From sequence record PQ850595.1: a stretch of 40,334 bases of DNA, one strand, 5' to 3'. A model generated the notes under the pieces. That model saw only the letters and a program-made list of their open reading frames with translations. It searched no databases and was not told the origin of the DNA. This DNA comes from Escherichia phage AnnaIndermaur_Bas104. The translations under genes were made by a program, and so were the position numbers. Within the stretch, counting starts at the first letter, position 1, and every line of letters starts with the position of its first letter. This document shows, in pieces, positions 3,433 to 40,334 of the stretch.

Positions 3433-3600
3433 TCTCACAGTGTACGGACCCAAAGTTCCCCCATAGGGGTCCCTAAAGCCCAGCCAATCACCTTGAGTCA
3501 ACTTTCAGTTGACTTTGAGGGTCCCTAAGGGTTGGGGTTGGTCCTTTGGGTTTGTCTTTGAGTGTTTCGTTGTGTCCCTATCTGTTACAACCTCCTAAAG
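3433..3600. repeat. terminal repeat (single collapsed copy) / concatemer junction between genome right and left ends
   Basis: starts TCTCACAGTGTACGGACC..., homologous to the T7 160-bp terminal repeat; right-end sequence precedes it and left-end promoters follow; exact TR limits in this phage are not determinable from one copy. Confidence 0.6.
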
Positions 3601-3707
3601 TCACCTCCTAAAGTCACCTCCTAAAGTCACCTCCTAAAGTCACCTCCTAAAGTCACCTCCTAAAGTCACCTCCTAAAGTCACCTCCTAAAGTCACCTCCT
3701 AAAGTCA
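3591..3707. repeat. perfect tandem array, 9 x 13 bp (CCTCCTAAAGTCA)
   Basis: read directly; T7 has only degenerate CCTAAAG-containing copies here. Confidence 0.9.
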
Positions 3708-3777
3708 TTCCTACCGTCTACAGCCTAAAGCCTAAACCTAAAGACCCATCAAGTCAACGCCTATCTTAAAGTATCCT

Positions 3778-17967: not shown

Positions 17968-19926
17968 ATGATCGTTTCTGACATCGAAGCTAACGCCCTC
18001 TTAGAGAGCGTCACTAAGTTCCACTGCGGGGTTATCTACGACTACTCCACCGCTGAGTACGTAAGCTACCGTCCGAGTGACTTCGGTGCGTATCTGGATG
18101 CGCTGGAAGCCGAGGTTGCACGAGGCGGTCTTATTGTGTTCCACAACGGTCACAAGTATGACGTGCCTGCATTGACCAAACTGGCAAAGTTGCAATTGAA
18201 CCGAGAGTTCCACCTTCCTCGTGAGAACTGTATTGACACCCTTGTGCTGTCACGCTTGATTCACTCTAACCTGAAAGACACCGATATGGGTCTCCTGCGT
18301 TCCGGTAAGTTGCCGGGGAACCGCTTTGGGTCTCACGCTTTGGAGGCGTGGGGTTATCGCTTAGGCGAAATGAAGGGTGAATACAAGGACGACTTTAAGC
18401 GTATGCTTGAAGAGCAAGGTGAAGAATACATTGATGGAATGGAGTGGTGGAACTTCAACGAAGAGATGATGGCCTATAACGTTCAGGACGTTGTGGTCAC
18501 TAAAACTCTCCTTGAGAAGCTACTCTCTGACAAACATTACTTCCCTCCTGAGATTGACTTTACGGACGTAGGATACACTACGTTCTGGTCAGAATCCCTT
18601 GAGGCCGTTGACATTGAGCATCGTGCTGCATGGCTACTCGCTAAGCAAGAGCGCAATGGGTTCCCGTTTGACACGAAAGCAATCGAAGAATTGTACGTAG
18701 AGTTAGCTGCTCGCCGCTCTGAGTTGCTCCGTAAATTGACCGAAACGTTCGGCTCGTGGTATCAGCCTAAAGGTGGCACCGAAATGTTCTGCCATCCGAG
18801 GACTGGTAAGCCATTGCCTAAATACCCTCGCATTAAGATACCTAAAGTTGGTGGTATCTTTAAGAAGCCTAAGAACAAGGCACAGCGAGAAGGCCGTGAG
18901 CCTTGCGAACTGGACACCCGCGAGTACGTTGCTGGTGCTCCTTATACGCCAGTTGAGCACGTAGTGTTTAACCCATCGTCTCGTGACCACATTCAGAAGA
19001 AACTCCAAGAGGCTGGGTGGGTCCCCACGAAGTACACCGATAATGGTGCGCCTGTGGTGGACGATGAGGTACTCGAAGGAGTACGTGTAGATGACCCTGA
19101 GAAGCAAGCTGCCATCGACCTCATTAAAGAGTACCTGATGATTCAGAAGCGAATCGGACAGTCTGCTGAGGGAGACAAGGCGTGGCTTCGTTACGTTGCT
19201 GAGGACGGTAAGATTCATGGTTCTGTTAATCCCAACGGCGCTGTTACTGGGCGCGCTACTCACGCTTTCCCTAACCTCGCACAAGTACCCGGTGTCCGTT
19301 CTCCTTATGGTGATAAGTGCCGCGCTGCTTTTGGCGCTGAACATCACCTAGACGGTATTACTGGTAAGCCTTGGGTTCAGGCTGGCATCGACGCATCCGG
19401 TCTGGAGCTACGCTGCTTGGCCCACTTCATGGCTCGCTTTGATAACGGTGAGTACGCTAGAGAGATTCTTCATGGCGACATCCACACTAAAAACCAGCTA
19501 GCTGCTGAATTACCTACCCGTGATAACGCAAAGACGTTCATCTATGGGTTCCTCTATGGTGCTGGCGATGAGAAGATTGGGCAGATTGTTGGTGCTGGTA
19601 AAGAGCGCGGTAAGGAACTCAAGAAGAAATTCCTTGAGAACACCCCCGCGATTGCAGCACTCCGCGAGTCTATCCAACAGACGCTTGTCGAGTCCTCTCA
19701 GTGGGTAGCTGGTGAGCAACAAGTCAAGTGGAAACGCCGCTGGATTAAAGGTCTGGATGGTCGTAAGGTACACGTTCGTAGTCCTCACGCTGCCTTGAAT
19801 ACACTACTGCAATCTGCTGGTGCTCTTATCTGCAAACTGTGGATTATCAAGACCGAAGAGATGCTAGTAGAGAAAGGCTTGAAGCATGGCTGGGATGGGG
19901 ACTTTGCGTACATGGCATGGGTGCAT
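17968..19926 (+). CDS. 5: DNA polymerase (T7 gp5 homolog), exon 1 (codons 1-653)
   Basis: near-identical to T7 gp5 up to ...FAYMAWVH; reading frame then diverges (KLSHCAH-stop) and T7 homology resumes at 20528. Confidence 0.9.
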
Positions 19927-20527
19927 AAACTATCTCATTGTGCACATTAAATCTGGTGAACTCGGTGAAACCCTTCTGGGGCAATACCGAGCCAAGCCAT
20001 AGGGAGGATATATGAGAGGCAAGAAGTTAATCCTTGCGGCCACAGAGAGTGGTTGTATCATCCCTACGTCGCACAAACTTAATGCTGATGGTTATTTCCG
20101 AAAGAAGACGAACGGTGTCCTAGAGATGTATCACAGGACAGTCTGGAAGGAACACTACGGAGATATACCAGAAGGGTATGAAGTAGACCACAAGTGTAGG
20201 AACAGGGCGTGCTGTAACGTAGAGCACCTCCGGTTACTAGAAGGTTCTGAGCATACAGTCAAGACAAACATGGAACGCTACGCTGACCGTAAAGAGTCCG
20301 CGAAGGAATACTGGTTGGAGACTGGATGTACAGGAACACACTTAGGTGAGAAGTTTGGTGTAACGTTCTCTGCCGCTTGTAAGTGGATTAGAGAGTGGAA
20401 GGCGTAGAGACTATCCGAAAGGAGTAGGGCCGAGGGTGAGATTCCCTCGTTACCCGAAGCGCCAGACAGTCAACTCAAAGGCTGATGATATAGTCCGACA
20501 CTCCTAGTAATAGGAGAATACAGAAAG
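19927..20527 (+). mobile_element. group I self-splicing intron (601 nt) in DNA polymerase gene, with HNH homing-endonuclease ORF
   Basis: exon 1 ends in U; exon 3' GUGCAU can pair with intron GUGCAC (19940-19945) to form P1 with U-G at the splice site; intron ends in G; exon1+exon2 = 704 codons, exactly T7 gp5 length. Confidence 0.8.
20012..20407 (+). CDS. intron-encoded HNH homing endonuclease, 131 aa
   Basis: HNH motif EVDHKCRNRACCNVEHL; GGGAGG RBS; lies wholly inside the intron. Confidence 0.85.
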   Translation: MRGKKLILAATESGCIIPTSHKLNADGYFRKKTNGVLEMYHRTVWKEHYGDIPEGYEVDHKCRNRACCNVEHLRLLEGSEHTVKTNMERYADRKESAKEYWLETGCTGTHLGEKFGVTFSAACKWIREWKA

Positions 20528-25428: not shown

Positions 25429-26352
25429 ATGGCTGAATCTAATGCAGACGTATATGCATCTTTTGGCGTGAACTCCGCTGTGATGTCTGGTGGTTCCATT
25501 GAGGAACATGAACAGAACATGCTGGCTCTTGATGTTGCTGCCCGTGATGGCGATGATGCAATCGAGTTAGCGTCCGACGAAGTGGAAACAGAACGTGACC
25601 TGTATGACAACTCTGACCCATTCGGTCAAGAGGATGACGAAGGTCGCATTCAGGTTCGTATTGGCGATGGCTCTGAGCCGACCGATGTGGACACTGGTGA
25701 AGAAGGCTTTGAGGACACCGAAGGTTCCGAAGAGTTTACACCGCTGGGTGAGACTCCAGAAGAACTGGTAGCTGCCTCTGAGCAACTTGGTGAGCACGAA
25801 GAGGGCTTCCAAGAGATGATTAACATTGCTGCCGAGCGTGGTATGAGCGCCGAGACCATCGAGGCCATCCAGCGTGAGTACGAGGAGAACGAAGAGTTGT
25901 CCGCTGAGTCCTACGCTAAGCTGGCTGAAATTGGCTACACTAAGGCTTTCATTGACTCGTACATTCGTGGTCAAGAAGCTCTGGTGGAGCAGTACGTAAA
26001 CAGTGTCATTGAGTACGCTGGTGGTCGTGAACGTTTTGATGCACTGTATAATCACCTTGAGACGCACAACCCTGAGGCTGCACAGTCGCTGGACAATGCG
26101 TTGACCAATCGTGACTTAGCGACAGTTAAGGCTATCATCAACTTGGCTGGTGAGTCTCGCGCTAAGGCGTTCGGTCGTAAGCCAACTCGTAGCGTGACTA
26201 ATCGTGCTATTCCGGCTAAACCTCAGGCTAACAAGCGTGAAGGCTTTGCGGACCGTAGCGAGATGATTAAAGCTATGAGCGACCCTCGGTATCGCACAGA
26301 TGCCAATTATCGTCGTCAAGTCGAACAGAAAGTAATCGACTCGAACTTCTGA
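25429..26352 (+). CDS. 9: capsid assembly (scaffolding) protein (T7 gp9 homolog), 307 aa
   Basis: acidic protein, 307 aa as T7 gp9, near-identical. Confidence 0.93.
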   Translation: MAESNADVYASFGVNSAVMSGGSIEEHEQNMLALDVAARDGDDAIELASDEVETERDLYDNSDPFGQEDDEGRIQVRIGDGSEPTDVDTGEEGFEDTEGSEEFTPLGETPEELVAASEQLGEHEEGFQEMINIAAERGMSAETIEAIQREYEENEELSAESYAKLAEIGYTKAFIDSYIRGQEALVEQYVNSVIEYAGGRERFDALYNHLETHNPEAAQSLDNALTNRDLATVKAIINLAGESRAKAFGRKPTRSVTNRAIPAKPQANKREGFADRSEMIKAMSDPRYRTDANYRRQVEQKVIDSNF

Positions 26353-26365
26353 TAGACTCTGAAAT

Positions 26366-26388
26366 TAATACGACTCACTATAGGGAGA
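26366..26388 (+). promoter_or_regulatory. T7 RNAP promoter phi10 (class III) with strong leader and RBS
   Basis: TAATACGACTCACTATAGGGAGA followed by CCACAACGGTTTCCCTCTAGAAAT...AAGGAG. Confidence 0.9.
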
Positions 26389-26446
26389 CCACAACGGTTT
26401 CCCTCTAGAAATCATTCTTGTTTAACTTTAAGAAGGAGACATACAT

Positions 26447-27478
26447 ATGACTACTATGACTGGTGGACAGCAACTGGGTACTAACCAAGGTAAAGGTGCA
26501 AGTGCTTCTGATAAACTGGCGTTGTTCTTGAAGGTATTTGGTGGTGAAGTTCTGACTGCATTCGCTCGTACCTCTGTGACCACTTCTCGCCACATGGTCC
26601 GTTCCATCTCCAGCGGTAAATCCGCTCAGTTCCCTGTACTGGGTCGCACTCAGGCAGCTTACTTGTCTCCGGGCGAGAACCTCGATGATAAACGTAAAGA
26701 CATCAAACACACCGAGAAGACCATCACCATTGATGGCCTCCTGACGGCTGACGTTCTGATTTACGATATTGAGGACGCGATGAACCACTATGACGTTCGC
26801 TCTGAGTATACCTCTCAGTTGGGTGAATCTCTGGCTATGGCTGCTGATGGTGCGGTTCTGGCTGAGATTGCTGGCCTGTGTAACTTGGCGGGCGCCTCTA
26901 ATGAGAACATTGATGGCTTGGGTACTGCTACCGTAATTGAGACCACTCAGGACAAGGCGGCACTTGCCGACCAAGTTGCTCTGGGTAAGGAGATTATTGC
27001 GGCTCTGACTAAGGCTCGTGCGGCTCTGACTAAGAACTATGTTCCGGCTGCTGACCGTGTGTTCTACTGCGACCCAGATAGCTACTCTGCGATTCTGGCA
27101 GCACTGATGCCTAATGCTGCAAACTACGCTGCTCTGATTGACCCTGAGAAGGGTTCTATCCGCAACGTTATGGGCTTTGAGGTTGTAGAAGTTCCGCACC
27201 TCACCGCTGGTGGTGCTGGCACTACTCGTGATGATACTACTGGTCAGAAGCATGCCTTCCCTGCCACTAAGAGTGGTAACGACAAGGTTGCTAAGGACAA
27301 CGTTATCGGCCTGTTCATGCACCGCTCTGCGGTAGGTACTGTTAAACTGCGTGACTTGGCTCTGGAGCGCGCCCGCCGTGCTAACTTCCAAGCAGACCAG
27401 ATTATCGCTAAGTATGCAATGGGCCACGGTGGTCTGCGACCAGAAGCTGCTGGTGCAGTGGTTTTCAAGGGGAAGTAA
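26447..27478 (+). CDS. 10: major capsid protein 10A (T7 gp10A homolog), 343 aa
   Basis: MTTMTGGQQLGTNQGKGASASDKLALFLKVFGGEVLTAFARTSV... near-identical to T7 gp10A. Confidence 0.97.
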   Translation: MTTMTGGQQLGTNQGKGASASDKLALFLKVFGGEVLTAFARTSVTTSRHMVRSISSGKSAQFPVLGRTQAAYLSPGENLDDKRKDIKHTEKTITIDGLLTADVLIYDIEDAMNHYDVRSEYTSQLGESLAMAADGAVLAEIAGLCNLAGASNENIDGLGTATVIETTQDKAALADQVALGKEIIAALTKARAALTKNYVPAADRVFYCDPDSYSAILAALMPNAANYAALIDPEKGSIRNVMGFEVVEVPHLTAGGAGTTRDDTTGQKHAFPATKSGNDKVAKDNVIGLFMHRSAVGTVKLRDLALERARRANFQADQIIAKYAMGHGGLRPEAAGAVVFKGK

Positions 27479-27636
27479 TGCTGGGAGTGGCCTCAACGGT
27501 CGCTGCTAGTCCCGAAGAGGAGAGTGTTACTTCAACAGAAGAAACCTTAACGCCAGCACAGAAGGCCGCACGCACCCGCGCTGCTAACAAGGCCCGAAAG
27601 GAAGCTGAGTTGGCTGCTGCCACCGCTGAGCAATAA
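26447..27636 (+). CDS. 10: minor capsid protein 10B, produced by -1 frameshift near the 3' end of 10A (predicted)
   Basis: the -1 frame stays open from the end of 10A to TAA at 27634-27636 and encodes ...AARTRAANKARKEAELAAATAEQ as in T7 10B; exact shift site not determined. Confidence 0.6.
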
Positions 27637-27643
27637 CTAGCAT

Positions 27644-27684
27644 AACCCCTTGGGGCCTCTAAACGGGTCTTGAGGGGTTTTTTG
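27644..27684 (+). terminator. T7 RNAP late terminator Tphi
   Basis: AACCCCTTGGGGCCTCTAAACGGGTCTTGAGGGGTTTTTTG, identical to the canonical Tphi hairpin. Confidence 0.9.
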
Positions 27685-27704
27685 CTGAAAGGAGGAGGAA
27701 CTAT

Positions 27705-28295
27705 ATGCGCTCTTACGATATGAACGTTGAGACTGCCGCTGAGTTATCCGCTGTGAACGACATTCTGGCATCTATCGGGGAACCTCCGGTATCGACGCTG
27801 GAAGGTGATGCTAACGCAGACGTGGCGAACGCTCGACGTATTCTCAATAAGATTAACCGACAGATTCAGTCTCGTGGCTGGACGTTCAACATTGAGGAAG
27901 GTGTAACGCTCTTACCTGATGTTTACTCCAACCTGATTGTATACAGTGATGACTATTTATCCTTAATGGCTACTTCCGGTCAATCCATCTACGTCAACCG
28001 AGGTGGCTATGTGTATGACCGAACGAATCAAACAGACCGCTTTGACTCTGGCATTACTGTGAACATTATACGTCTTCGAGACTACGATGAGATGCCTGAG
28101 TGCTTCCGCTACTGGATAGTAACCAAGGCTTCCCGTCAGTTCAACAACCGATTCTTTGGGGCACCAGAAGTAGAGGGTGTACTCCAAGAAGAGGAAGATG
28201 AGGCTAGACGCCTCTGTATGGAGTACGAAGTGGACTACGGTGGGTACAATATGCTGGACGGCGATGCGTTCACTTCTGGTCTACTGACTCGCTAA
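27705..28295 (+). CDS. 11: tail tubular protein A (T7 gp11 homolog), 196 aa
   Basis: 196 aa as T7 gp11, near-identical. Confidence 0.95.
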
Positions 28296-31801: not shown

Positions 31802-34063
31802 ATGAGTAAAATTGAATCTGCCCTTCAAGCGGCACAACCGGGACTCTCTCGGTTACGTGGTGGGGCTGGCGGTATGGGCTATCGTGCAGCAACCACTCAA
31901 GCTGGACAACCAAGGTCAAGCCTATTGGACACCATTGGTCGGTTCGCTCAGGCTGGTGCTGATATGTATACCGCTAAGGAACAACGAGCACGAGACCTAG
32001 CTGACGAACGCTCCAACGAGATTATCCGTAAGCTGACCCCAGAGCAACGTCGAGAAGCTCTCAACAATGGGACCCTTCTGTATCAGGATGACCCATACGC
32101 TATGGAAGCACTGCGAGTCAAGACTGGTCGTAACGCTGCATACCTTGTTGACGATGACGTTATGCAGAAGATCAAAGAGGGTGTCTTCCGTACTCGTGAA
32201 GAAATGGAAGAGTATCGTCACACTCGTCTTCAAGAGGGCGCTAAGACATACGCTGAGCAGTTTGGTATTGACCCTGATGACGTTGACTATCAGCGTGGTT
32301 TCAACGGGGACATCACCGAGCGTAACATCTCGCTGTATGGCGCACATGATAACTTCTTGAGCCAGCAAGCTCAGAAGGGTGCCATCATGAACAGCCGAGT
32401 GGAACTCAACAGCGTCCTTCAAGACCCAGATATGCTTCGTCGCCAAGACTCTGCGGACTTCTTTGAGAAGTACATCGACAACGGTCTGGTTACTGGAGCA
32501 ATCCCGTCTGACGCTCAGGCTACACAGCTTATAAGCCAAGCGTTCAGTGACGCTTCTAGCCGTGCTGGTGGTGCTGACTTCCTGATGCGAGTCGGTGACA
32601 AGAAGGTAACGCTTAACGGAGTCACTACGACCTATAAGGAACTTATGGGTGAAGAGCAGTGGAATGCCCTTATGGTGACAGCCCAGAGAGCACAATACGA
32701 CAACGATGCGAAACTGAACGAGAAGTTTCAACTAGATGTCAACTCTGCGTTGTTCATGGATGACCCTCGTGTTGGTTGGGAGAAGCTCCAAGGAATAAAA
32801 GCTGAGTTAGATAAACACCAGCCCGGAGAGCAGATGACCCCTCAACGCGCCACACTTATAGAGGCACAGCAGCAACTACGAGCCAAGATGGTAGAGTGGG
32901 CCAAGAACGAGGCCAAAGCACTTGATAAGGCTCAGAAGGCCGATAATAAGTTTAGGGTTATTGATGCTCAGTATCAAAAGCGAATCAATGGGGAGTGGGT
33001 CTCTACTGACTTTAAGGATATGCCTACAAACGATAACACTGGGGATTTCGAACACAGCGACATTGTAAACTACGCTAACAAGAAGCTGGCTGACATAGAC
33101 GCTATGGACATCCCAGACGGAGCAAAAGATAGACTCAAACTACAGTACCTTCAAGCAGACTCTAAGGACGGTCCTTTCAGGACTGCGATAGGAACGATGG
33201 TTCAGGATGCTGCTCAGGAGTGGTCTTCTTCTGTGATGAATGGTAAGTTAGCGGACAAGACTCCAGCGATGGATGCCTTACGCAGAATCCGCAACGCAGA
33301 CCCATACCTCATAGCGTCACTGTACCCTGAGCAAGCTGAGCTATTCTTGACAATGGACTTGGCCGACCGACAGGGTGTTGATGTGCAGGAGTTGATTGAC
33401 GCTGACCGTCAGATTGCCACACGTTCTAAGGAGCAACGATTCGAAGATGATAAAGCCTTTGAGCAAGCTCTTAATGACTCTAAAGTTCCAGAGATAGCAA
33501 ATATGCCGACAGAACTAAGGGGACTTGCTCGTAAGATTTATGACTCGGTTAAGTATCGTACCAACAACGCTAACATGGCTATGACCGAGATGCAGAAGTT
33601 CCTTAAGGAGTCCACTACTACCTTTAATGACGATAGCTCAGACAGTGAGGGAGCCATTGGGGTAATTCCGAGGAACTATCTACAGGTAAACGATGACCCT
33701 AAATCTTGGAAGCAAGGTAAGGATATTATCGACGCTGCTCTTAAAGGAATCATAGCGGCTAACCCAAGTATGGCCTCTGAGAAGATGACAGTCTCGGTAA
33801 TCGGGAAGTCTATCTACATCATGCCAACTACAGGGACTGGCCCACGGGTTCGTTACGACAAGGAGATGTTGTCCAAGGTCTGGAAGGAAACACAAGAGCG
33901 TCTCGCAACGGAAGCCGTTGAGAAGGCCCGTGATAAAGCTATGGCTGATGCCAACAAGCGAGCACCTATAGTTGCCGCTACGAAGGCCCGTGAAGCTGCT
34001 GCTAAACGAGTCAGAGAGAAACGTAAACATACTCCTAAGTTCATTTACGGACGCAAGGAGTAA
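31802..34063 (+). CDS. 15: internal virion protein C (T7 gp15 homolog), 753 aa
   Basis: near-identical to T7 gp15 over most of its length. Confidence 0.93.
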   Translation: MSKIESALQAAQPGLSRLRGGAGGMGYRAATTQAGQPRSSLLDTIGRFAQAGADMYTAKEQRARDLADERSNEIIRKLTPEQRREALNNGTLLYQDDPYAMEALRVKTGRNAAYLVDDDVMQKIKEGVFRTREEMEEYRHTRLQEGAKTYAEQFGIDPDDVDYQRGFNGDITERNISLYGAHDNFLSQQAQKGAIMNSRVELNSVLQDPDMLRRQDSADFFEKYIDNGLVTGAIPSDAQATQLISQAFSDASSRAGGADFLMRVGDKKVTLNGVTTTYKELMGEEQWNALMVTAQRAQYDNDAKLNEKFQLDVNSALFMDDPRVGWEKLQGIKAELDKHQPGEQMTPQRATLIEAQQQLRAKMVEWAKNEAKALDKAQKADNKFRVIDAQYQKRINGEWVSTDFKDMPTNDNTGDFEHSDIVNYANKKLADIDAMDIPDGAKDRLKLQYLQADSKDGPFRTAIGTMVQDAAQEWSSSVMNGKLADKTPAMDALRRIRNADPYLIASLYPEQAELFLTMDLADRQGVDVQELIDADRQIATRSKEQRFEDDKAFEQALNDSKVPEIANMPTELRGLARKIYDSVKYRTNNANMAMTEMQKFLKESTTTFNDDSSDSEGAIGVIPRNYLQVNDDPKSWKQGKDIIDAALKGIIAANPSMASEKMTVSVIGKSIYIMPTTGTGPRVRYDKEMLSKVWKETQERLATEAVEKARDKAMADANKRAPIVAATKAREAAAKRVREKRKHTPKFIYGRKE

Positions 34064-34089
34064 CTCAAGGCTACATAAGGAGGCCCTAA

Positions 34090-37000
34090 ATGGTTAAGTA
34101 CGATAAGAACGTACCAAGTGAGTATGATGGTCTGTTCCAGAAGGCGGCTGATGCCAACGGGGTCTCTTATGACCTTTTACGTAAAGTCGCTTGGACAGAA
34201 TCACGATTCCAGCCTACAGCAAAATCTAAGACTGGACCATTAGGCATGATGCAGTTTACCAAGGCAACCGCTAAGGCCCTTGGTCTGCGAGTTACCGATG
34301 GTCCAGATGATGACCGACTGAACCCTGAGTTGGCTATCAATGCTGCTGCCAAGCACCTTGCTGAACTGGTGAATAAATTTGATGGGGACGAACTCAAAGC
34401 TGCCCTTGCGTACAATCAAGGTGAGGGACACTTAGGGAGTCCACAACTTGAGGCATACACAAAAGGTGACTTCTCAGCTATCTCCGAGGAGGGGCGTAAC
34501 TACATGCGTAACCTCATGGATGTAGCTCGGTCGCCAATGAGTGGTCAGTTAGAAGCATTCGGAGGAATCACCCCAAAGGGTAAAGGCATCCCTTCTGATG
34601 TTGGTTTGGGGGACATTCAGGTCGAAGGGAAGCGTAAAGTAACAGATGCTATCCCAGAGTCAACTGGATTTAACATTAAAGGTATCGAACAGGAGGCTCC
34701 GGCGAAATCATTCGCTACGGACTTTTGGGACCATCATAAACAGGAACTATCTGAGTATGACGACCGCTCAACATTCTTCGGATTCAAAGATGCTGCAAGT
34801 GCAGAAATTGACAACTCAGTACTAGGCATGGCCTTCCGTGCTGGTCGCCTCGATAATGGTTTTGATGTGTTTAAGGATGTTATCACACCTACGCGTTGGA
34901 ACTCTACTGTCTGGACTCCTGAGGAATTAGAGCGGATTCGCACAGAGGTTAAGAACCCAGCGTATCTCAATGTTGTTACAGGTGGTTCCCCTGAGAACCT
35001 TGATGACCTAATTAGATTAGCCAACGAAAACTACGAGAATGACCTAAAGAAAGCTGATGCAGGTATCGGTGCACAGCTTTCCGCTGGCGTTGTTGGTTCA
35101 GCATTCGACCCACTATCATATGTACCACTGGTTGGTGTAACAGGTAAGGGCTTTAAGCTAATCAATAAGGCTCTTGTGGTTGGCGCTGAGAGTGCCGCTA
35201 TTAACATGGCCTCAGAAGGGATGCGAACGTCTATAGTTGGTGGAGACGCTAATTACACTGGTGCGGTACTAGGCGGCCTTGTATTTGGGGCAGGAATGTC
35301 TGCAATCAGTGACGCTATCTCCGCTGGGCTTAGACGCAGCAAGCCTGAGGCTGAGTTTAACAATGAGTTCGTTGGGCCGTTAATGCGAATGGAAGCTCGC
35401 GAGACTGCCTTTAACGCCAACTCTGTGGACACGTCTAAGATGAACACAGACAGCGTTAAATTCGACCGAGAGTACAGTGGGGTTGACTACGCACCATTGG
35501 ACACCGAGCCGGGTGCAGTTGTCCTACCTCAAGGTCAAATCCTCAGTGACACTAACCCACTGAACCCACAGACATTAAGTGAGTTTGAGGCGATAAACCC
35601 TGAGCGTGCAGCCAGAGGTATCTCCTTAGGTGGGTTCACTGAGATTGGCCTTAAGACACTACGTTCTGAGAACGCGGCGGTTCGCTCCATTGCACGTGAC
35701 CTAGTGCGCTCTCCAACTGGTATGGAATCAGGGTCTAACGGTAAGTTCGGTTCTACCGCTGATGACATCCATAGTAGAGTATCATCCAACGATAACCGCG
35801 ATTGGAACCTCTACTATGATAAGATGAACGAAGTCTTGAAAGACCCTGAGTTCACAACAGGTGCGCCTAAGATGAGCAAAGCAGAGGCCGTTGAGTTCAT
35901 TGACCGCAAAATTGGACTGGCAATAGAGCACCCTGAGTTACAGGTAAACTTGTCTCCTAAAGAGCTAGACCTGATGCGCCACGTTAAGGGCCACTATGAC
36001 CTCAAGCGTGAACTCATGGAAAACCCTGCTGTGTTCGGGAATCCAAAAGCGGTTAGTATCTTCCCCGGCAGTAACTACAAAGGTACGTACATTCCGCGAG
36101 TGTATGACACCCAATCGAAGAATTTTTATATTCAACTTTTGGGGAGTCGAGAGGCTTTTCAGGAGGCTATCGCTGGAAGTTCCCTTGCGTCCTACTATCT
36201 GCGTCCAGAAGTTAAGGCACGTATCGACGAGCACCTGATGGAAGTTAACGGACTTAAGTCACCTAAAGACGTAACGCACGAAATGGTGCGAAAGCACGCT
36301 ATGGACAAGGCATATGGTATCTCCCATAGTGACCAGTTCTCAGCGTCTTCTATTGTTGATGAGAACATCACTGGTCTTGTCGGTATTGAAAATAATAACT
36401 TTCTGGAAGCACGTAACCTCTTTGATACTGACGTACCTATTACATTACCTGATGGCTCTACGTTCTGCGTAGATGACATTCGAGTGTTCAGCCAGCGTAT
36501 CCTTATGCCAGCGTATGACCGTCGTGTGAATGGTGATATTGCCATCATGGGTAGCTCTGGTAAAACTACCAAGGAACTCAAGGATGAAATTATGGAACTA
36601 AGTAAGCAGGCAGAAGGTAATGGGCAGTTGAAGGGTGAAGTAGAAGCTCTCAAGGATACCGTGAAGATTCTAACTGGTCGCGCCCGTCGCAGCCCAGAAG
36701 GTGCTTTAGGGACAGCTTTACGCTCTCTGAATGACCTGACGTTCTTCGCCAAGAACTTCTATATGCCTCTCCAGAACTTCACGGAGATTGCTGGTATGTT
36801 GGTCAAAGGTAATGTCTCTGCGATGACTCATGGAATCCCTATGATTAACGATTGGGTTAACCGTAGGAAACCAATGCGGGCCTCTGAGATTAAAGAACTC
36901 CACAGTATGGTGTTCGGGAAGGAACTCGACCAGCTAATGCGCCCTAGTCGTGAAGACCACATTCGCAGACTCAGGGAGTCTACAGACACCAACGCTGTGT

Positions 37001-38064
37001 TGGCTAATGTGGTTGGTACTCTTCGTTTCAGCACTCAGGAGTTAGCGGCTCGTTCACCGTGGACTGTTATGCTAAATGGAACCACTAACTACATCCTAGA
37101 TGCTGCCCGTCAAGGTGTCCTTGGGGATATTGCCAGTGCAGCACTATCAGGGACTGGTGCTAAGTTTGGTAAGGCAAACTATCTTAAGTCTGCCTCAATC
37201 AGTCCTGAGCAGTGGGATGGTATCAAGCAATTATTTCGGGACCACACAACTAGGGATTCTAACGGTAAGTTCACAATCAAGGACAAAAGGGCGTTCACCT
37301 ACGACCCACGCACGATGGATTTGTGGAGGCTTGCTGACAAAGTGGCTGGAGAGACTATGCTGCGCCCGCATAAGATTTCCTCTCAAGATTCCGTTGCGTA
37401 TGGGGCAGGAGTAAAGATGGTGATGCAATTTAAGAACTTCGTTATCAAGTCGCTTAACGCCAGATTCGTCCGTAGCTTCTATGAGGCCACAAAGAACAAC
37501 CGTGCGTTAGACCAAGCGTTAACTCACATTGTTGCCTGTGGGCTTGCTGGTGGATACTACGTTGGACAGGCGCACCTAAAGGCCGCTGCCTTGCCTGAGG
37601 ACAAACGTAAGGAGTACCTCAAGATGGCACTAGACCCGAAGATGATTGCCCATGCGTCTATCTCCCGTAGCTCACACTTAGGTTCGCCACTTAGCATCTA
37701 CGATATGATCGCTGGGGTGTTTGGTGATGATACCTATAAATACACACGCTCCACGATACTACCTAAGCAACCAGATGAACGAGATCGCACAAAAGCGGTC
37801 ACAGGTCGGCAGGTGACTGGTATGATTAGTGGTGCTTTAGGTGAGCAGATTCCTGCTTTGGGGTTCGCAGGGCAGGTTGGTGGTACAGCGCTTAATGCCG
37901 TATCACTACTGAAAGCACCTAACAAGGCTACCGAGATGGAGTTCCGTACAGGGATGTTTAATACCATGCGTGAGATTGTTCCTAACGACCCTATCACGCA
38001 GCAACTCATTATGAAAATTTATGAGGCCAATGGTATCTACATCAAGGAGACACCTAGGAAATAA
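34090..38064 (+). CDS. 16: internal virion protein D with N-terminal lytic transglycosylase domain (T7 gp16 homolog), 1324 aa
   Basis: SLT-like N-terminus ...WTESRFQPTAKSKTGPLGMMQFT...; length and sequence as T7 gp16. Confidence 0.95.
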   Translation: MVKYDKNVPSEYDGLFQKAADANGVSYDLLRKVAWTESRFQPTAKSKTGPLGMMQFTKATAKALGLRVTDGPDDDRLNPELAINAAAKHLAELVNKFDGDELKAALAYNQGEGHLGSPQLEAYTKGDFSAISEEGRNYMRNLMDVARSPMSGQLEAFGGITPKGKGIPSDVGLGDIQVEGKRKVTDAIPESTGFNIKGIEQEAPAKSFATDFWDHHKQELSEYDDRSTFFGFKDAASAEIDNSVLGMAFRAGRLDNGFDVFKDVITPTRWNSTVWTPEELERIRTEVKNPAYLNVVTGGSPENLDDLIRLANENYENDLKKADAGIGAQLSAGVVGSAFDPLSYVPLVGVTGKGFKLINKALVVGAESAAINMASEGMRTSIVGGDANYTGAVLGGLVFGAGMSAISDAISAGLRRSKPEAEFNNEFVGPLMRMEARETAFNANSVDTSKMNTDSVKFDREYSGVDYAPLDTEPGAVVLPQGQILSDTNPLNPQTLSEFEAINPERAARGISLGGFTEIGLKTLRSENAAVRSIARDLVRSPTGMESGSNGKFGSTADDIHSRVSSNDNRDWNLYYDKMNEVLKDPEFTTGAPKMSKAEAVEFIDRKIGLAIEHPELQVNLSPKELDLMRHVKGHYDLKRELMENPAVFGNPKAVSIFPGSNYKGTYIPRVYDTQSKNFYIQLLGSREAFQEAIAGSSLASYYLRPEVKARIDEHLMEVNGLKSPKDVTHEMVRKHAMDKAYGISHSDQFSASSIVDENITGLVGIENNNFLEARNLFDTDVPITLPDGSTFCVDDIRVFSQRILMPAYDRRVNGDIAIMGSSGKTTKELKDEIMELSKQAEGNGQLKGEVEALKDTVKILTGRARRSPEGALGTALRSLNDLTFFAKNFYMPLQNFTEIAGMLVKGNVSAMTHGIPMINDWVNRRKPMRASEIKELHSMVFGKELDQLMRPSREDHIRRLRESTDTNAVLANVVGTLRFSTQELAARSPWTVMLNGTTNYILDAARQGVLGDIASAALSGTGAKFGKANYLKSASISPEQWDGIKQLFRDHTTRDSNGKFTIKDKRAFTYDPRTMDLWRLADKVAGETMLRPHKISSQDSVAYGAGVKMVMQFKNFVIKSLNARFVRSFYEATKNNRALDQALTHIVACGLAGGYYVGQAHLKAAALPEDKRKEYLKMALDPKMIAHASISRSSHLGSPLSIYDMIAGVFGDDTYKYTRSTILPKQPDERDRTKAVTGRQVTGMISGALGEQIPALGFAGQVGGTALNAVSLLKAPNKATEMEFRTGMFNTMREIVPNDPITQQLIMKIYEANGIYIKETPRK

Positions 38065-38136: not shown

Positions 38137-39927
38137 ATGGCTAACGTAATTAAAACCGTTTTGACTTACCAGTTAGATGGCTCCAAGCGTGATTTTAATA
38201 TCCCGTTTGAGTATCTAGCCCGTAAGTTCGTAGTGGTAACTCTTATTGGTGTAGACCGCAAGGTCCTTACGATTAATACAGACTACCGTTTTGCTACGCG
38301 TACTACCATCTCACTAACCAAGGCTTGGGGTCCGGCAGATGGCTACACGACCATCGAGTTGCGTCGAGTAACCTCCACGACCGACCGATTGGTTGACTTT
38401 ACGGACGGCTCAATCCTACGTGCGTATGACCTTAACGTAGCTCAGATTCAAACTATGCACGTAGCAGAAGAGGCCCGTGACCTTACCGCCGATACTATCG
38501 GTGTTAATAATGATGGTCACTTGGATGCCCGTGGTCGTAAGATTGTGAACCTAGCGTTCGCTACTGGCGACTATGATGCTGTTCCTCTGAAGCAGATTAA
38601 GGAACGTGAGAACTCTGCGTGGAACGCTGTTATTAAATCTGACGAACACGCTAACCGCTCCAACAGGGAAGCCAACCGCTCACGCGACGAAGCTGACCGC
38701 GCGAAACGTGAAGCTGACCGCTCAACCCAACAGGCAGGTGTCTCTACGTCACAGGCAGTTGAGTCCAAAACGCAAGCTGACCGTTCCAACTCTGAGGCCA
38801 ACCGTGCTAAAGGTTATGCCGATAGTATGACCACAAGCGTCGCTGAGGCCAAGAAGCAAGCTGACCGCTCTAACTCTGAGGCCAATCGTGCCCGTGATGA
38901 GGCCAATCGTGCTGCCGGAGAAGTGACTAAAGCTGCTGCTGAGGTTGTCAAGGCTGCTGCACATGTTGGGACCGCTAAGGGACATGCTGACCGAGCCAAC
39001 ACTGAGGCAAACCGTTCCAAAGGCGAGGCTGACCGTGCTAAGGCCGAGGCCGATAAGTTGGGCAACATGAATGGCCTTGCTGGTGCTGTAGAGAGAGTTC
39101 AGGGTAATAGTGTATCATGGAAAGGAGAAGGCTCTTGGGTTGGAGGTCCTGTATACAGACTTCCAACGAACAACGCATTTAGGTTCCGTATGGGTATTTG
39201 GGAAGAAGGCGACTTCCTTAAGTCTGACTTCGCCATGGACCGACCGGACGGTATAGGGTTCATAGAGTATTCAGCGGACAAGACTGGGCAACATCGTCAC
39301 CAGATGCGACTTAATCAGTTAACAATAGCTGGTGGTGTGTTAGAGTCAGATGCTGATGGTCTCATAGCTCACGCTTTCGCTGACCAGTACAACACTAAAG
39401 CTCCTTTCTTCCAACAGATTAATGTACAATCTACAAGCTCATATCATCCAATAATAAAGCAACGAACTTTCCAAGCTGGACGATGGGCAGGATGCTGGTC
39501 TATCGGCACATTACTGACTGGAGCGCATCCATCATTCCACATACATATGAGAGACGAAGCTGGAAATGATAAACTTTGGGCGTTCAATACTAATGGAGAC
39601 TTCCACGCCAATGGGGAGATTTGGGCAGATGGTGGACGTGTGGTTGTACGGAATGGCTCTTTAAACCCTGAGGGTAGAGTTTGGGGTACTGCGTATAATA
39701 ACGGATACCTAGATGACTGGATTCGGGCAAACTGGCCAGGCGATGTTTATTGGGGTCCTCAACGCTGGCAACAGAAGTGGGGAGGTTATGCAGACATTTA
39801 TGCTGGTGCTGGGGAAGCCTGCTCTGGTATAACCGCCGATGGTAGCGGTAACGTTGCGGGTGCATTCTTCCGAGCGCTTTGGCTTGGGTATCACAATGGT
39901 AATAGACGATTAGTTGCTTCCCAATAA
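38137..39927 (+). CDS. 17: tail fiber protein, mosaic: T7 gp17-like N-terminal tail-attachment domain plus heterologous coiled-coil and C-terminal receptor-binding region, 596 aa
   Basis: first ~150 aa (MANVIKTVLTYQLDGSKRDFNIPFEYLARKF...GHLDARGRKIVNLA) match T7 gp17; the remainder shows no resemblance to T7 gp17 as I recall it. Confidence 0.9.
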   Translation: MANVIKTVLTYQLDGSKRDFNIPFEYLARKFVVVTLIGVDRKVLTINTDYRFATRTTISLTKAWGPADGYTTIELRRVTSTTDRLVDFTDGSILRAYDLNVAQIQTMHVAEEARDLTADTIGVNNDGHLDARGRKIVNLAFATGDYDAVPLKQIKERENSAWNAVIKSDEHANRSNREANRSRDEADRAKREADRSTQQAGVSTSQAVESKTQADRSNSEANRAKGYADSMTTSVAEAKKQADRSNSEANRARDEANRAAGEVTKAAAEVVKAAAHVGTAKGHADRANTEANRSKGEADRAKAEADKLGNMNGLAGAVERVQGNSVSWKGEGSWVGGPVYRLPTNNAFRFRMGIWEEGDFLKSDFAMDRPDGIGFIEYSADKTGQHRHQMRLNQLTIAGGVLESDADGLIAHAFADQYNTKAPFFQQINVQSTSSYHPIIKQRTFQAGRWAGCWSIGTLLTGAHPSFHIHMRDEAGNDKLWAFNTNGDFHANGEIWADGGRVVVRNGSLNPEGRVWGTAYNNGYLDDWIRANWPGDVYWGPQRWQQKWGGYADIYAGAGEACSGITADGSGNVAGAFFRALWLGYHNGNRRLVASQ

Positions 39928-39936
39928 GGAGACATT

Positions 39937-40320
39937 ATGCGTAAATTTACTAACTGGACATACGAAGTAACTACCGCTTACGGCGGTATCGCCACTTATG
40001 ACGTGACGGCCTCTTGTGGGACCGATTGGTATGAACTCATGGTTGAACTTGAGGACCGACCTGAGAGATGGGTAGTCGGTATTGATAAGAACGGATTCAT
40101 CTCATGGTTCTCCGATGGAACTGTTAACGGCACTTATGCGCCACCTGAGGGCGGTCTGGTGATTGTCACCGATGAGTTCGACCCTGAGTGGCAACGTGTT
40201 AAACTTTGGAACGGGGAGTCCTTCGAGGATATCCCTAATCCACCTAAACGTACACCTGAGGAAATCCAAGCAGACCTTGAGGCTCTGATGGTTGAACTTC
40301 GTGGGCTTAGGGGGGGATAA
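39937..40320 (+). CDS. hypothetical protein, 127 aa; candidate tail-fiber assembly chaperone (weak Tfa-like resemblance)
   Basis: intact ORF with AAGGAG RBS 6 nt upstream, inserted between gene 17 and 17.5; acidic, no TM; PEGGLVIVTDE...LWNGESF loosely resembles the lambda Tfa / P2 gpG N-terminal region as I recall it. Confidence 0.45.
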   Translation: MRKFTNWTYEVTTAYGGIATYDVTASCGTDWYELMVELEDRPERWVVGIDKNGFISWFSDGTVNGTYAPPEGGLVIVTDEFDPEWQRVKLWNGESFEDIPNPPKRTPEEIQADLEALMVELRGLRGG

Positions 40321-40334
40321 TGGAGGTAAACTAA

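Follow-up and report, generated by a model that had tools for sequence, protein, structure and literature searches.

The window, by which we mean the whole 40,334-nucleotide stretch of Escherichia phage AnnaIndermaur_Bas104 (sequence record PQ850595.1), carries on its plus strand a T7-type gene 10 locus, delimited by a class III promoter on one side and by the terminator Tphi on the other. Its features are:

26367..26389, + strand: phi10, a T7-type class III promoter (TAATACGACTCACTATAGGGAGA), found by direct reading of the sequence
26447..27478, + strand: gene 10A, major capsid protein, zero frame; an ORF of 343 aa (36.2 kDa) with its stop TAA at 27476-27478
27460..27466, + strand: slippery heptamer G_GTT_TTC, in register, with zero-frame codons Val339 (GTT) and Phe340 (TTC)
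27466..27636, + strand: 10B-specific region in the -1 frame, 56 codons (QGEVML...ATAEQ) and a TAA at 27634-27636
27480..27510, + strand: predicted RNA hairpin, inner stem 27486-27492 / 27498-27504, obtained in both MFE and centroid folds
27644..27685, + strand: terminator Tphi, found by terminator scan; stem-loop 27644-27679, with CCCC at 27646-27649, then a T run

The promoter phi10 is a member of promoter repeat family D2, occupies a position equal to that of the annotated phi10 in T7 and 13a, and drives transcription of gene 10. The product of gene 10A is a T7-type major capsid protein (Pfam Gp10A-like, PF21703, E 1.6e-113), residues 1-342 of which match the T7 capsid protein structure chain 2xvr_A with an E-value of 3.8e-203. 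When positions 26340-27720 were compared with phage records, 348 of them matched, the closest being that of Escherichia phage EmilieLinder_Bas103 (99.5%), while T7 is 93.4% identical over this gene 10 interval.

Comparison with the Bas103 record identifies the window as a T7-like coliphage genome in circularly permuted form, the start of which lies near the holin gene. The 13-nt unit ACCTCCTAAAGTC is repeated in tandem about ten times at 3564-3746, a stretch flanked by the terminase end of the genome and the ocr-like early region. This is presumably a genome-end or concatemer-junction repeat region, and the assembly would therefore be circularly permuted, starting at the holin gene. Relative to Bas103, the genome is mosaic: identity is mostly 93-99%, falls to just 80% at 33920-35447, and megablast gave no match to Bas103 in two stretches, 35447-38012, the region of the internal virion proteins, and 39035-40334, that of the distal tail fibre and the assembly protein. 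Judging from this pattern, modules for host range or for proteins of ejection appear to have been exchanged at 33920-38012 and 39035-40334. Finally, the DNA polymerase gene contains, at 19917-20517 on the plus strand, a stretch that matches the Rfam group I intron model RF00028 over its full length (36.8 bits, E 1.7e-7); the match lies below the gathering score of 50 and was missed by the gathering scan. In the Bas103 record, the polymerase is annotated as two joined pieces enclosing an HNH endonuclease CDS.

We then examined the reading frames at the end of gene 10A. The heptamer G_GTT_TTC is located 16 nt upstream of the 10A stop, with three codons between, an offset identical to that in T7. 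The initial annotation had correctly noticed a GGTTTTC near the end of 10A, but had placed it at 27448-27454, 12 positions away from where it actually lies (27460-27466). In the -1 frame (codon starts equal to 1 modulo 3), the nearest stop on the upstream side is at 27409-27411; the frame is then open over 27412-27633 and terminates at the TAA at 27634-27636. Beyond the initial T of the 10A stop it runs for 53 codons or, counted from the ATG at 27478, for 52 codons, which agrees with the length and the stop first read from the sequence. In the +1 frame, a stop follows after 10 codons. Taken alone, the open -1 frame is statistically ordinary and not significant, as 15% of shuffles of 27478-27633 contain no in-frame stop. 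Thus, the case for a frameshift rests on homology and comparison.

Besides GGTTTTC, the 22-codon overlap of the two frames contains a single further sequence that resembles a heptamer under relaxed criteria, AATGGGC at -58; it was rejected as a slip site because P-site re-pairing is impossible there. Right after the heptamer, the codons AAG_GGG generate a G_GGG at 27469-27472, which T7 does not have (AAA_GTG). This clade-specific G_GGG is a possible weak single-tRNA -1 slip site that could allow minor slippage. Slippage at this point would alter 10B at the junction residue only, which would be K instead of Q.

When the two frames are fused at the heptamer, the predicted full 10B has 396 aa and a mass of 41.6 kDa. 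Its tail ends ...QGEVMLGVASTVAASPEEESVTSTEETLTPAQKAARTRAANKARKEAELAAATAEQ*, is identical to the T7 10B tail at 52 of 56 residues and matches PHROG 12582 (E 2.3e-27). The -1 frame had been described at the outset as encoding the T7 10B-specific tail, with a translation ending ...KARKEAELAAATAEQ*, and both parts of this description hold. In Pfam, the tail matched no family, the single hit being below threshold and attributable to chance. Among solved structures, none was found with the 10B tail apart from PDB 8rcx, where residues 22-63 of chain A ("HTH-type transcriptional regulator VirS") match 10B residues 355-396 (E 9.4e-9). This match is probably due to vector-derived sequence from the gene 10/Tphi region and does not reflect a biological relationship. 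AlphaFold, run on the tail as a single sequence, models residues 1-29 as coil and residues 30-55 as one helix with pLDDT above 90. The tail is thus predicted to consist of an acidic, Ser/Thr-rich flexible linker followed by an alpha-helix that bears the conserved basic motif LTPAQKAARTRAANKA. This basic helix may be a functional surface module, involved for example in adhesion, like the Ig-like tail of T3-like phages. T7 tolerates the loss of 10B (PMC11482910) and, by analogy, 10B here would be a minor, dispensable capsid subunit with its extra C-terminal tail exposed on the shell.

Next, the locus was compared with those of its relatives, using a set of 83 loci: 80 IMG/VR loci containing 10A relatives (78-96% protein identity), T7, 13a and Bas103. 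Beyond the 10A stop, the -1 frame runs for 38-93 codons in 82 of the 83 loci and for 16 codons in the remaining one, while the +1 frame runs for just 2-17 codons. There are 77 distinct -1 ORFs among these loci, and each of them includes the shift site within its open stretch. GTT_TTC is present in register, 13-25 nt upstream of the stop, in 78 of the 83 loci. Its Val codon is invariably GTT, a codon that accounts for ~41% of the Val codons in these genes; the third positions flanking GTT_TTC have 2-4 alleles. In 51 of 54 contexts, a G immediately precedes GTT, though the amino acid specified by the codon to which this base belongs can be V, L, A or I. Judged by these counts, the heptamer is conserved at synonymous sites, beyond what the protein requires. 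Alternative heptamers are found at the equivalent place in T3-type loci (C_CCA_AAG) and in one further locus, L083 (G_GTA_AAG).

Natural variants of the heptamer were observed near locus position 2514-2530, A_GTT_TTC in L007 and L018 and C_GTT_TTC in L017. The tail of L059 is shortened to 16 codons by a premature stop. Together with L083, these four loci are possible natural tests of the first heptamer base and of the tail.

Three types of tail are encoded downstream of the shift site: a T7 type with LTPAQKAARTRAANKA, a T3 type, and a tail of ~92 residues in a clade of IMG/VR contigs that we term "Klebsiella-type", a label that is our own guess. Within the T7-type tail block LTPAQKAARTRAANKA (16 codons, 25 nucleotide versions), all 16 third positions are variable, as against 6 first and 4 second positions. 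This concentration of the variation at third positions points clearly to purifying selection on the -1 frame protein across the relatives.

We also asked what RNA structures accompany the shift site. The predicted hairpin at 27480-27510 is separated from the heptamer by a spacer of 13 nt, longer than the usual 5-9 nt. Compared with gene-internal windows, the 60 nt 3' of the heptamer fold more stably in most clades (mean z -2.05, 58 distinct sequences), and the z-score for the 60 nt after the shift site in this phage is about -2.3. RNAalifold, applied to the region from the heptamer to Tphi in 14 T7-clade sequences, yielded no compensatory pairs, only one-sided compatible changes (G-U to A-U). 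A role of such a hairpin as local frameshift stimulator is plausible for the family, and the 27480-27510 hairpin is a possible candidate for it in this phage. In the Klebsiella-type clade, a strong hairpin is present ~19-20 nt 3' of G_GTT_TTC (L029-L082, for example L033:2511-2590). Compensatory changes occur there at two pairs, with A-U/G-C in 7 of 24 and C-G/U-A in 5 of 24 sequences, the stem variants being GGGTGG/CCACCT, GGACGG/CCGTCT and GGGCGG/CCGCCT. Because some of these pair changes alter the encoded tail residues, the RNA structure itself appears to be under selection in this clade. We propose only tentatively the broader reading, in which hairpins in the tail-coding RNA 6-20 nt 3' of the heptamer are selected stimulators in all T7-like clades (here the 27480-27510 hairpin in addition to the Tphi effect) and the LTPAQKAARTRAANKA helix serves as a surface module; on balance, we regard it as rather doubtful.

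The 10B stop is located 7 nt upstream of the Tphi stem (27644-27679), confirming that the 10B frame ends just before Tphi, and the CCCC of Tphi lies 180 nt 3' of the heptamer. In the alignment with T7, the stretch that begins at the 10B stop and takes in the Tphi stem, with its CCCC, and the T run shows complete identity. A long-range pairing of this CCCC with a GGGG near the shift site was considered and dropped, as no consistent partner could be seen by eye: the GGGG at 27469-27472 here corresponds to GTGGAG in T7 and to ACGGAG, GCGGAG or ACGAAG in other relatives. The Rfam gathering scan of the whole window returned no frameshift element and no other family. On the far side of Tphi, the gene 11 ribosome-binding region at 27691-27703 reads AGGAGGAGGAACT, where T7 and Bas103 both have AGGAGGAACT; a 3-nt (AGG/GGA) duplication is thus present here relative to both.

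Together, these results make it very probable that gene 10 of this phage undergoes the programmed -1 ribosomal frameshift of T7-like phages. For the conserved T7-type frameshift originally proposed at this locus, all sequence-level features are present, and expression of 10B would follow by analogy. On the capsid mRNA running from phi10 to Tphi, most ribosomes would terminate at the TAA at 27476-78 and release 10A (343 aa). A minority would slip by -1 while decoding G_GUU_UUC (27460-27466), in a tandem slip: the tRNA-Val in the P site would exchange GUU for GGU, and the tRNA-Phe in the A site UUC for UUU. Reading would then resume at CAA (27466-68), from which translation would continue for 56 codons to the TAA at 27634-36, just 5' of Tphi. 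The product would be 10B, with 396 aa and the junction ...AVVF|QGEVMLGV..., and the local hairpin at 27480-27510 might contribute to slippage.

This scheme draws on published work on related phages. G_GUU_UUC is the shift site of T7 gene 10, and the CCCC of a terminator ~200 nt 3' of it is involved in frameshifting efficiency in a manner that is not explained (PMC5009743). About 10% of translations of T7 gene 10 yield 10B, and in a plasmid that carries GGTTTTC but not its native 3' context, shifting is under 1% (PMC1635266), indicating that efficiency depends on context. In phage Kvp1, a -1 shift at TTTTCA has been confirmed by mass spectrometry (PMC2579914). For the phage studied here, we infer slippage, its level of ~10% and the involvement of the Tphi CCCC from these T7 and Kvp1 experiments.

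Could the tail be made in another way? One alternative is that the ORF at 27478-27636 (52 codons) is a separate "head protein" gene, translated from its own ATG by coupling or re-initiation and never fused to 10A by a frameshift. Exactly this ORF is a stand-alone CDS called "head protein" in the Bas103 record, and PHROG 12582 is a 52-residue profile of the stand-alone ORF. In addition, a purine-rich AAGGGGAAG is located 2-10 nt upstream of the ATG at 27478, and this ATG overlaps the 10A stop (TAATG, 27476-27480), so that a free 52-aa peptide could instead be made from it. However, the start is not conserved: ATG/TAATG is found in 18 of 38 distinct T7-type tails and is absent from the other 20, most of which have no ATG anywhere upstream of the conserved motif while their tail is still under purifying selection. 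The -1 frame, by contrast, is always open back through the heptamer, which counts against a separate gene, and the synonymous-site conservation of the heptamer is not something that a separate gene would require. Moreover, the T7 annotation gives 10B as a CDS joined by frameshifting, and mass spectrometry identified Kvp1 Gp10B as a frameshift product. We therefore hold a separate gene to be very unlikely, and the stand-alone "head protein" calls appear to be an error introduced by automatic gene calling.

It is very improbable that 10B arises by transcriptional slippage, in which the phage RNA polymerase would slip on the T run of GGTTTTC and generate mRNAs with a 1-nt deletion. The shift site does include a homopolymeric T4 run, but this run is only 4 long, and productive transcriptional slippage generally requires considerably longer runs. 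C_CCA_AAG and G_GTA_AAG, used in other clades, are classic tandem-tRNA slip motifs and contain no long homopolymers, and the G before GTT, which is selectively kept, is relevant to re-pairing of the P-site tRNA and not to polymerase slippage. Transcriptional slippage is a recognised source of frameshifted products, but T7 gene 10 is treated as a case of ribosomal frameshifting (PMC5009743). Lastly, the dispensability of 10B in T7, the L059 tail cut to 16 codons and the non-G first heptamer base in L007, L017 and L018 could be taken to mean that the tail frame is an inherited relic without meaningful expression, its heptamer present but inefficient in context, a view that is hardly credible given that heptamer, tail and Tphi are all intact here, that the stretch from 10B stop to T run does not differ from that of T7, and that purifying selection clearly acts on the tail block throughout the family.

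With programmed -1 ribosomal frameshifting as the preferred reading, the T7-type gene 10 frameshift is intact in this phage; it is a known mechanism and usual in this group of phages. In practical terms, the annotation should join 26447..27466 with 27466..27636 as ribosomal slippage, instead of listing a separate 52-aa "head protein". The comparison also brings more data to an old question, namely that tail and shift site are selected across genera though 10B is dispensable in the laboratory.

How does this locus compare with known frameshifting systems? In E. coli dnaX, the heptamer is A_AAA_AAG. There, the bacterial ribosome likewise performs a -1 tandem slip on a heptamer and produces a fixed ratio of two products, with an upstream Shine-Dalgarno element and a closely spaced 3' stem-loop, at a level of ~50% (PMC1635266). 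For the gene 10 site, unlike dnaX, a comparable Shine-Dalgarno element or close stem-loop is not established, the known stimulator in T7 being the distant terminator element.

Nearer to this phage are T3 and phiYeO3-12, whose homologous capsid gene has a -1 frameshift close to its end, from which a minor protein with a longer C-terminus results (PMC5009743, PMC2579914). Their shift takes place on lysyl codons (PMC2579914), unlike here, and the T3-type loci of our comparison set have C_CCA_AAG and a tail of 84-93 codons. The T3 extension is Ig-like, whereas that of T7 is not (PMC5009743). Kluyvera phage Kvp1 is a more distant relative, likened to this phage through the published description of its site: its Gp10B results from a -1 shift at a matching TTTTCA-containing site in the capsid gene and was identified by mass spectrometry in a 43.6-kDa band (PMC2579914).

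The closest parallel is T7 10A/10B itself, the frameshift of Condron, Atkins and Gesteland (1991) as cited in PMC5009743 and PMC1635266. Both phages share the gene, the heptamer G_GUU_UUC, its distance of 16 nt from the 10A stop and the 53-codon extension, and the T7 record V01146 lists a joined CDS for 10B at the equivalent place. They differ by four substitutions in the tail and in the length of 10A (345 aa in T7, 343 aa here). The zero-frame codons that follow the heptamer are AAG GGG AAG here and AAA GTG GAG in T7, so that the junction would read QGEV in this phage and QSGV in T7. These differences are details only and, judged by its sequence, this phage is a member of the T7 10A/10B frameshift family.
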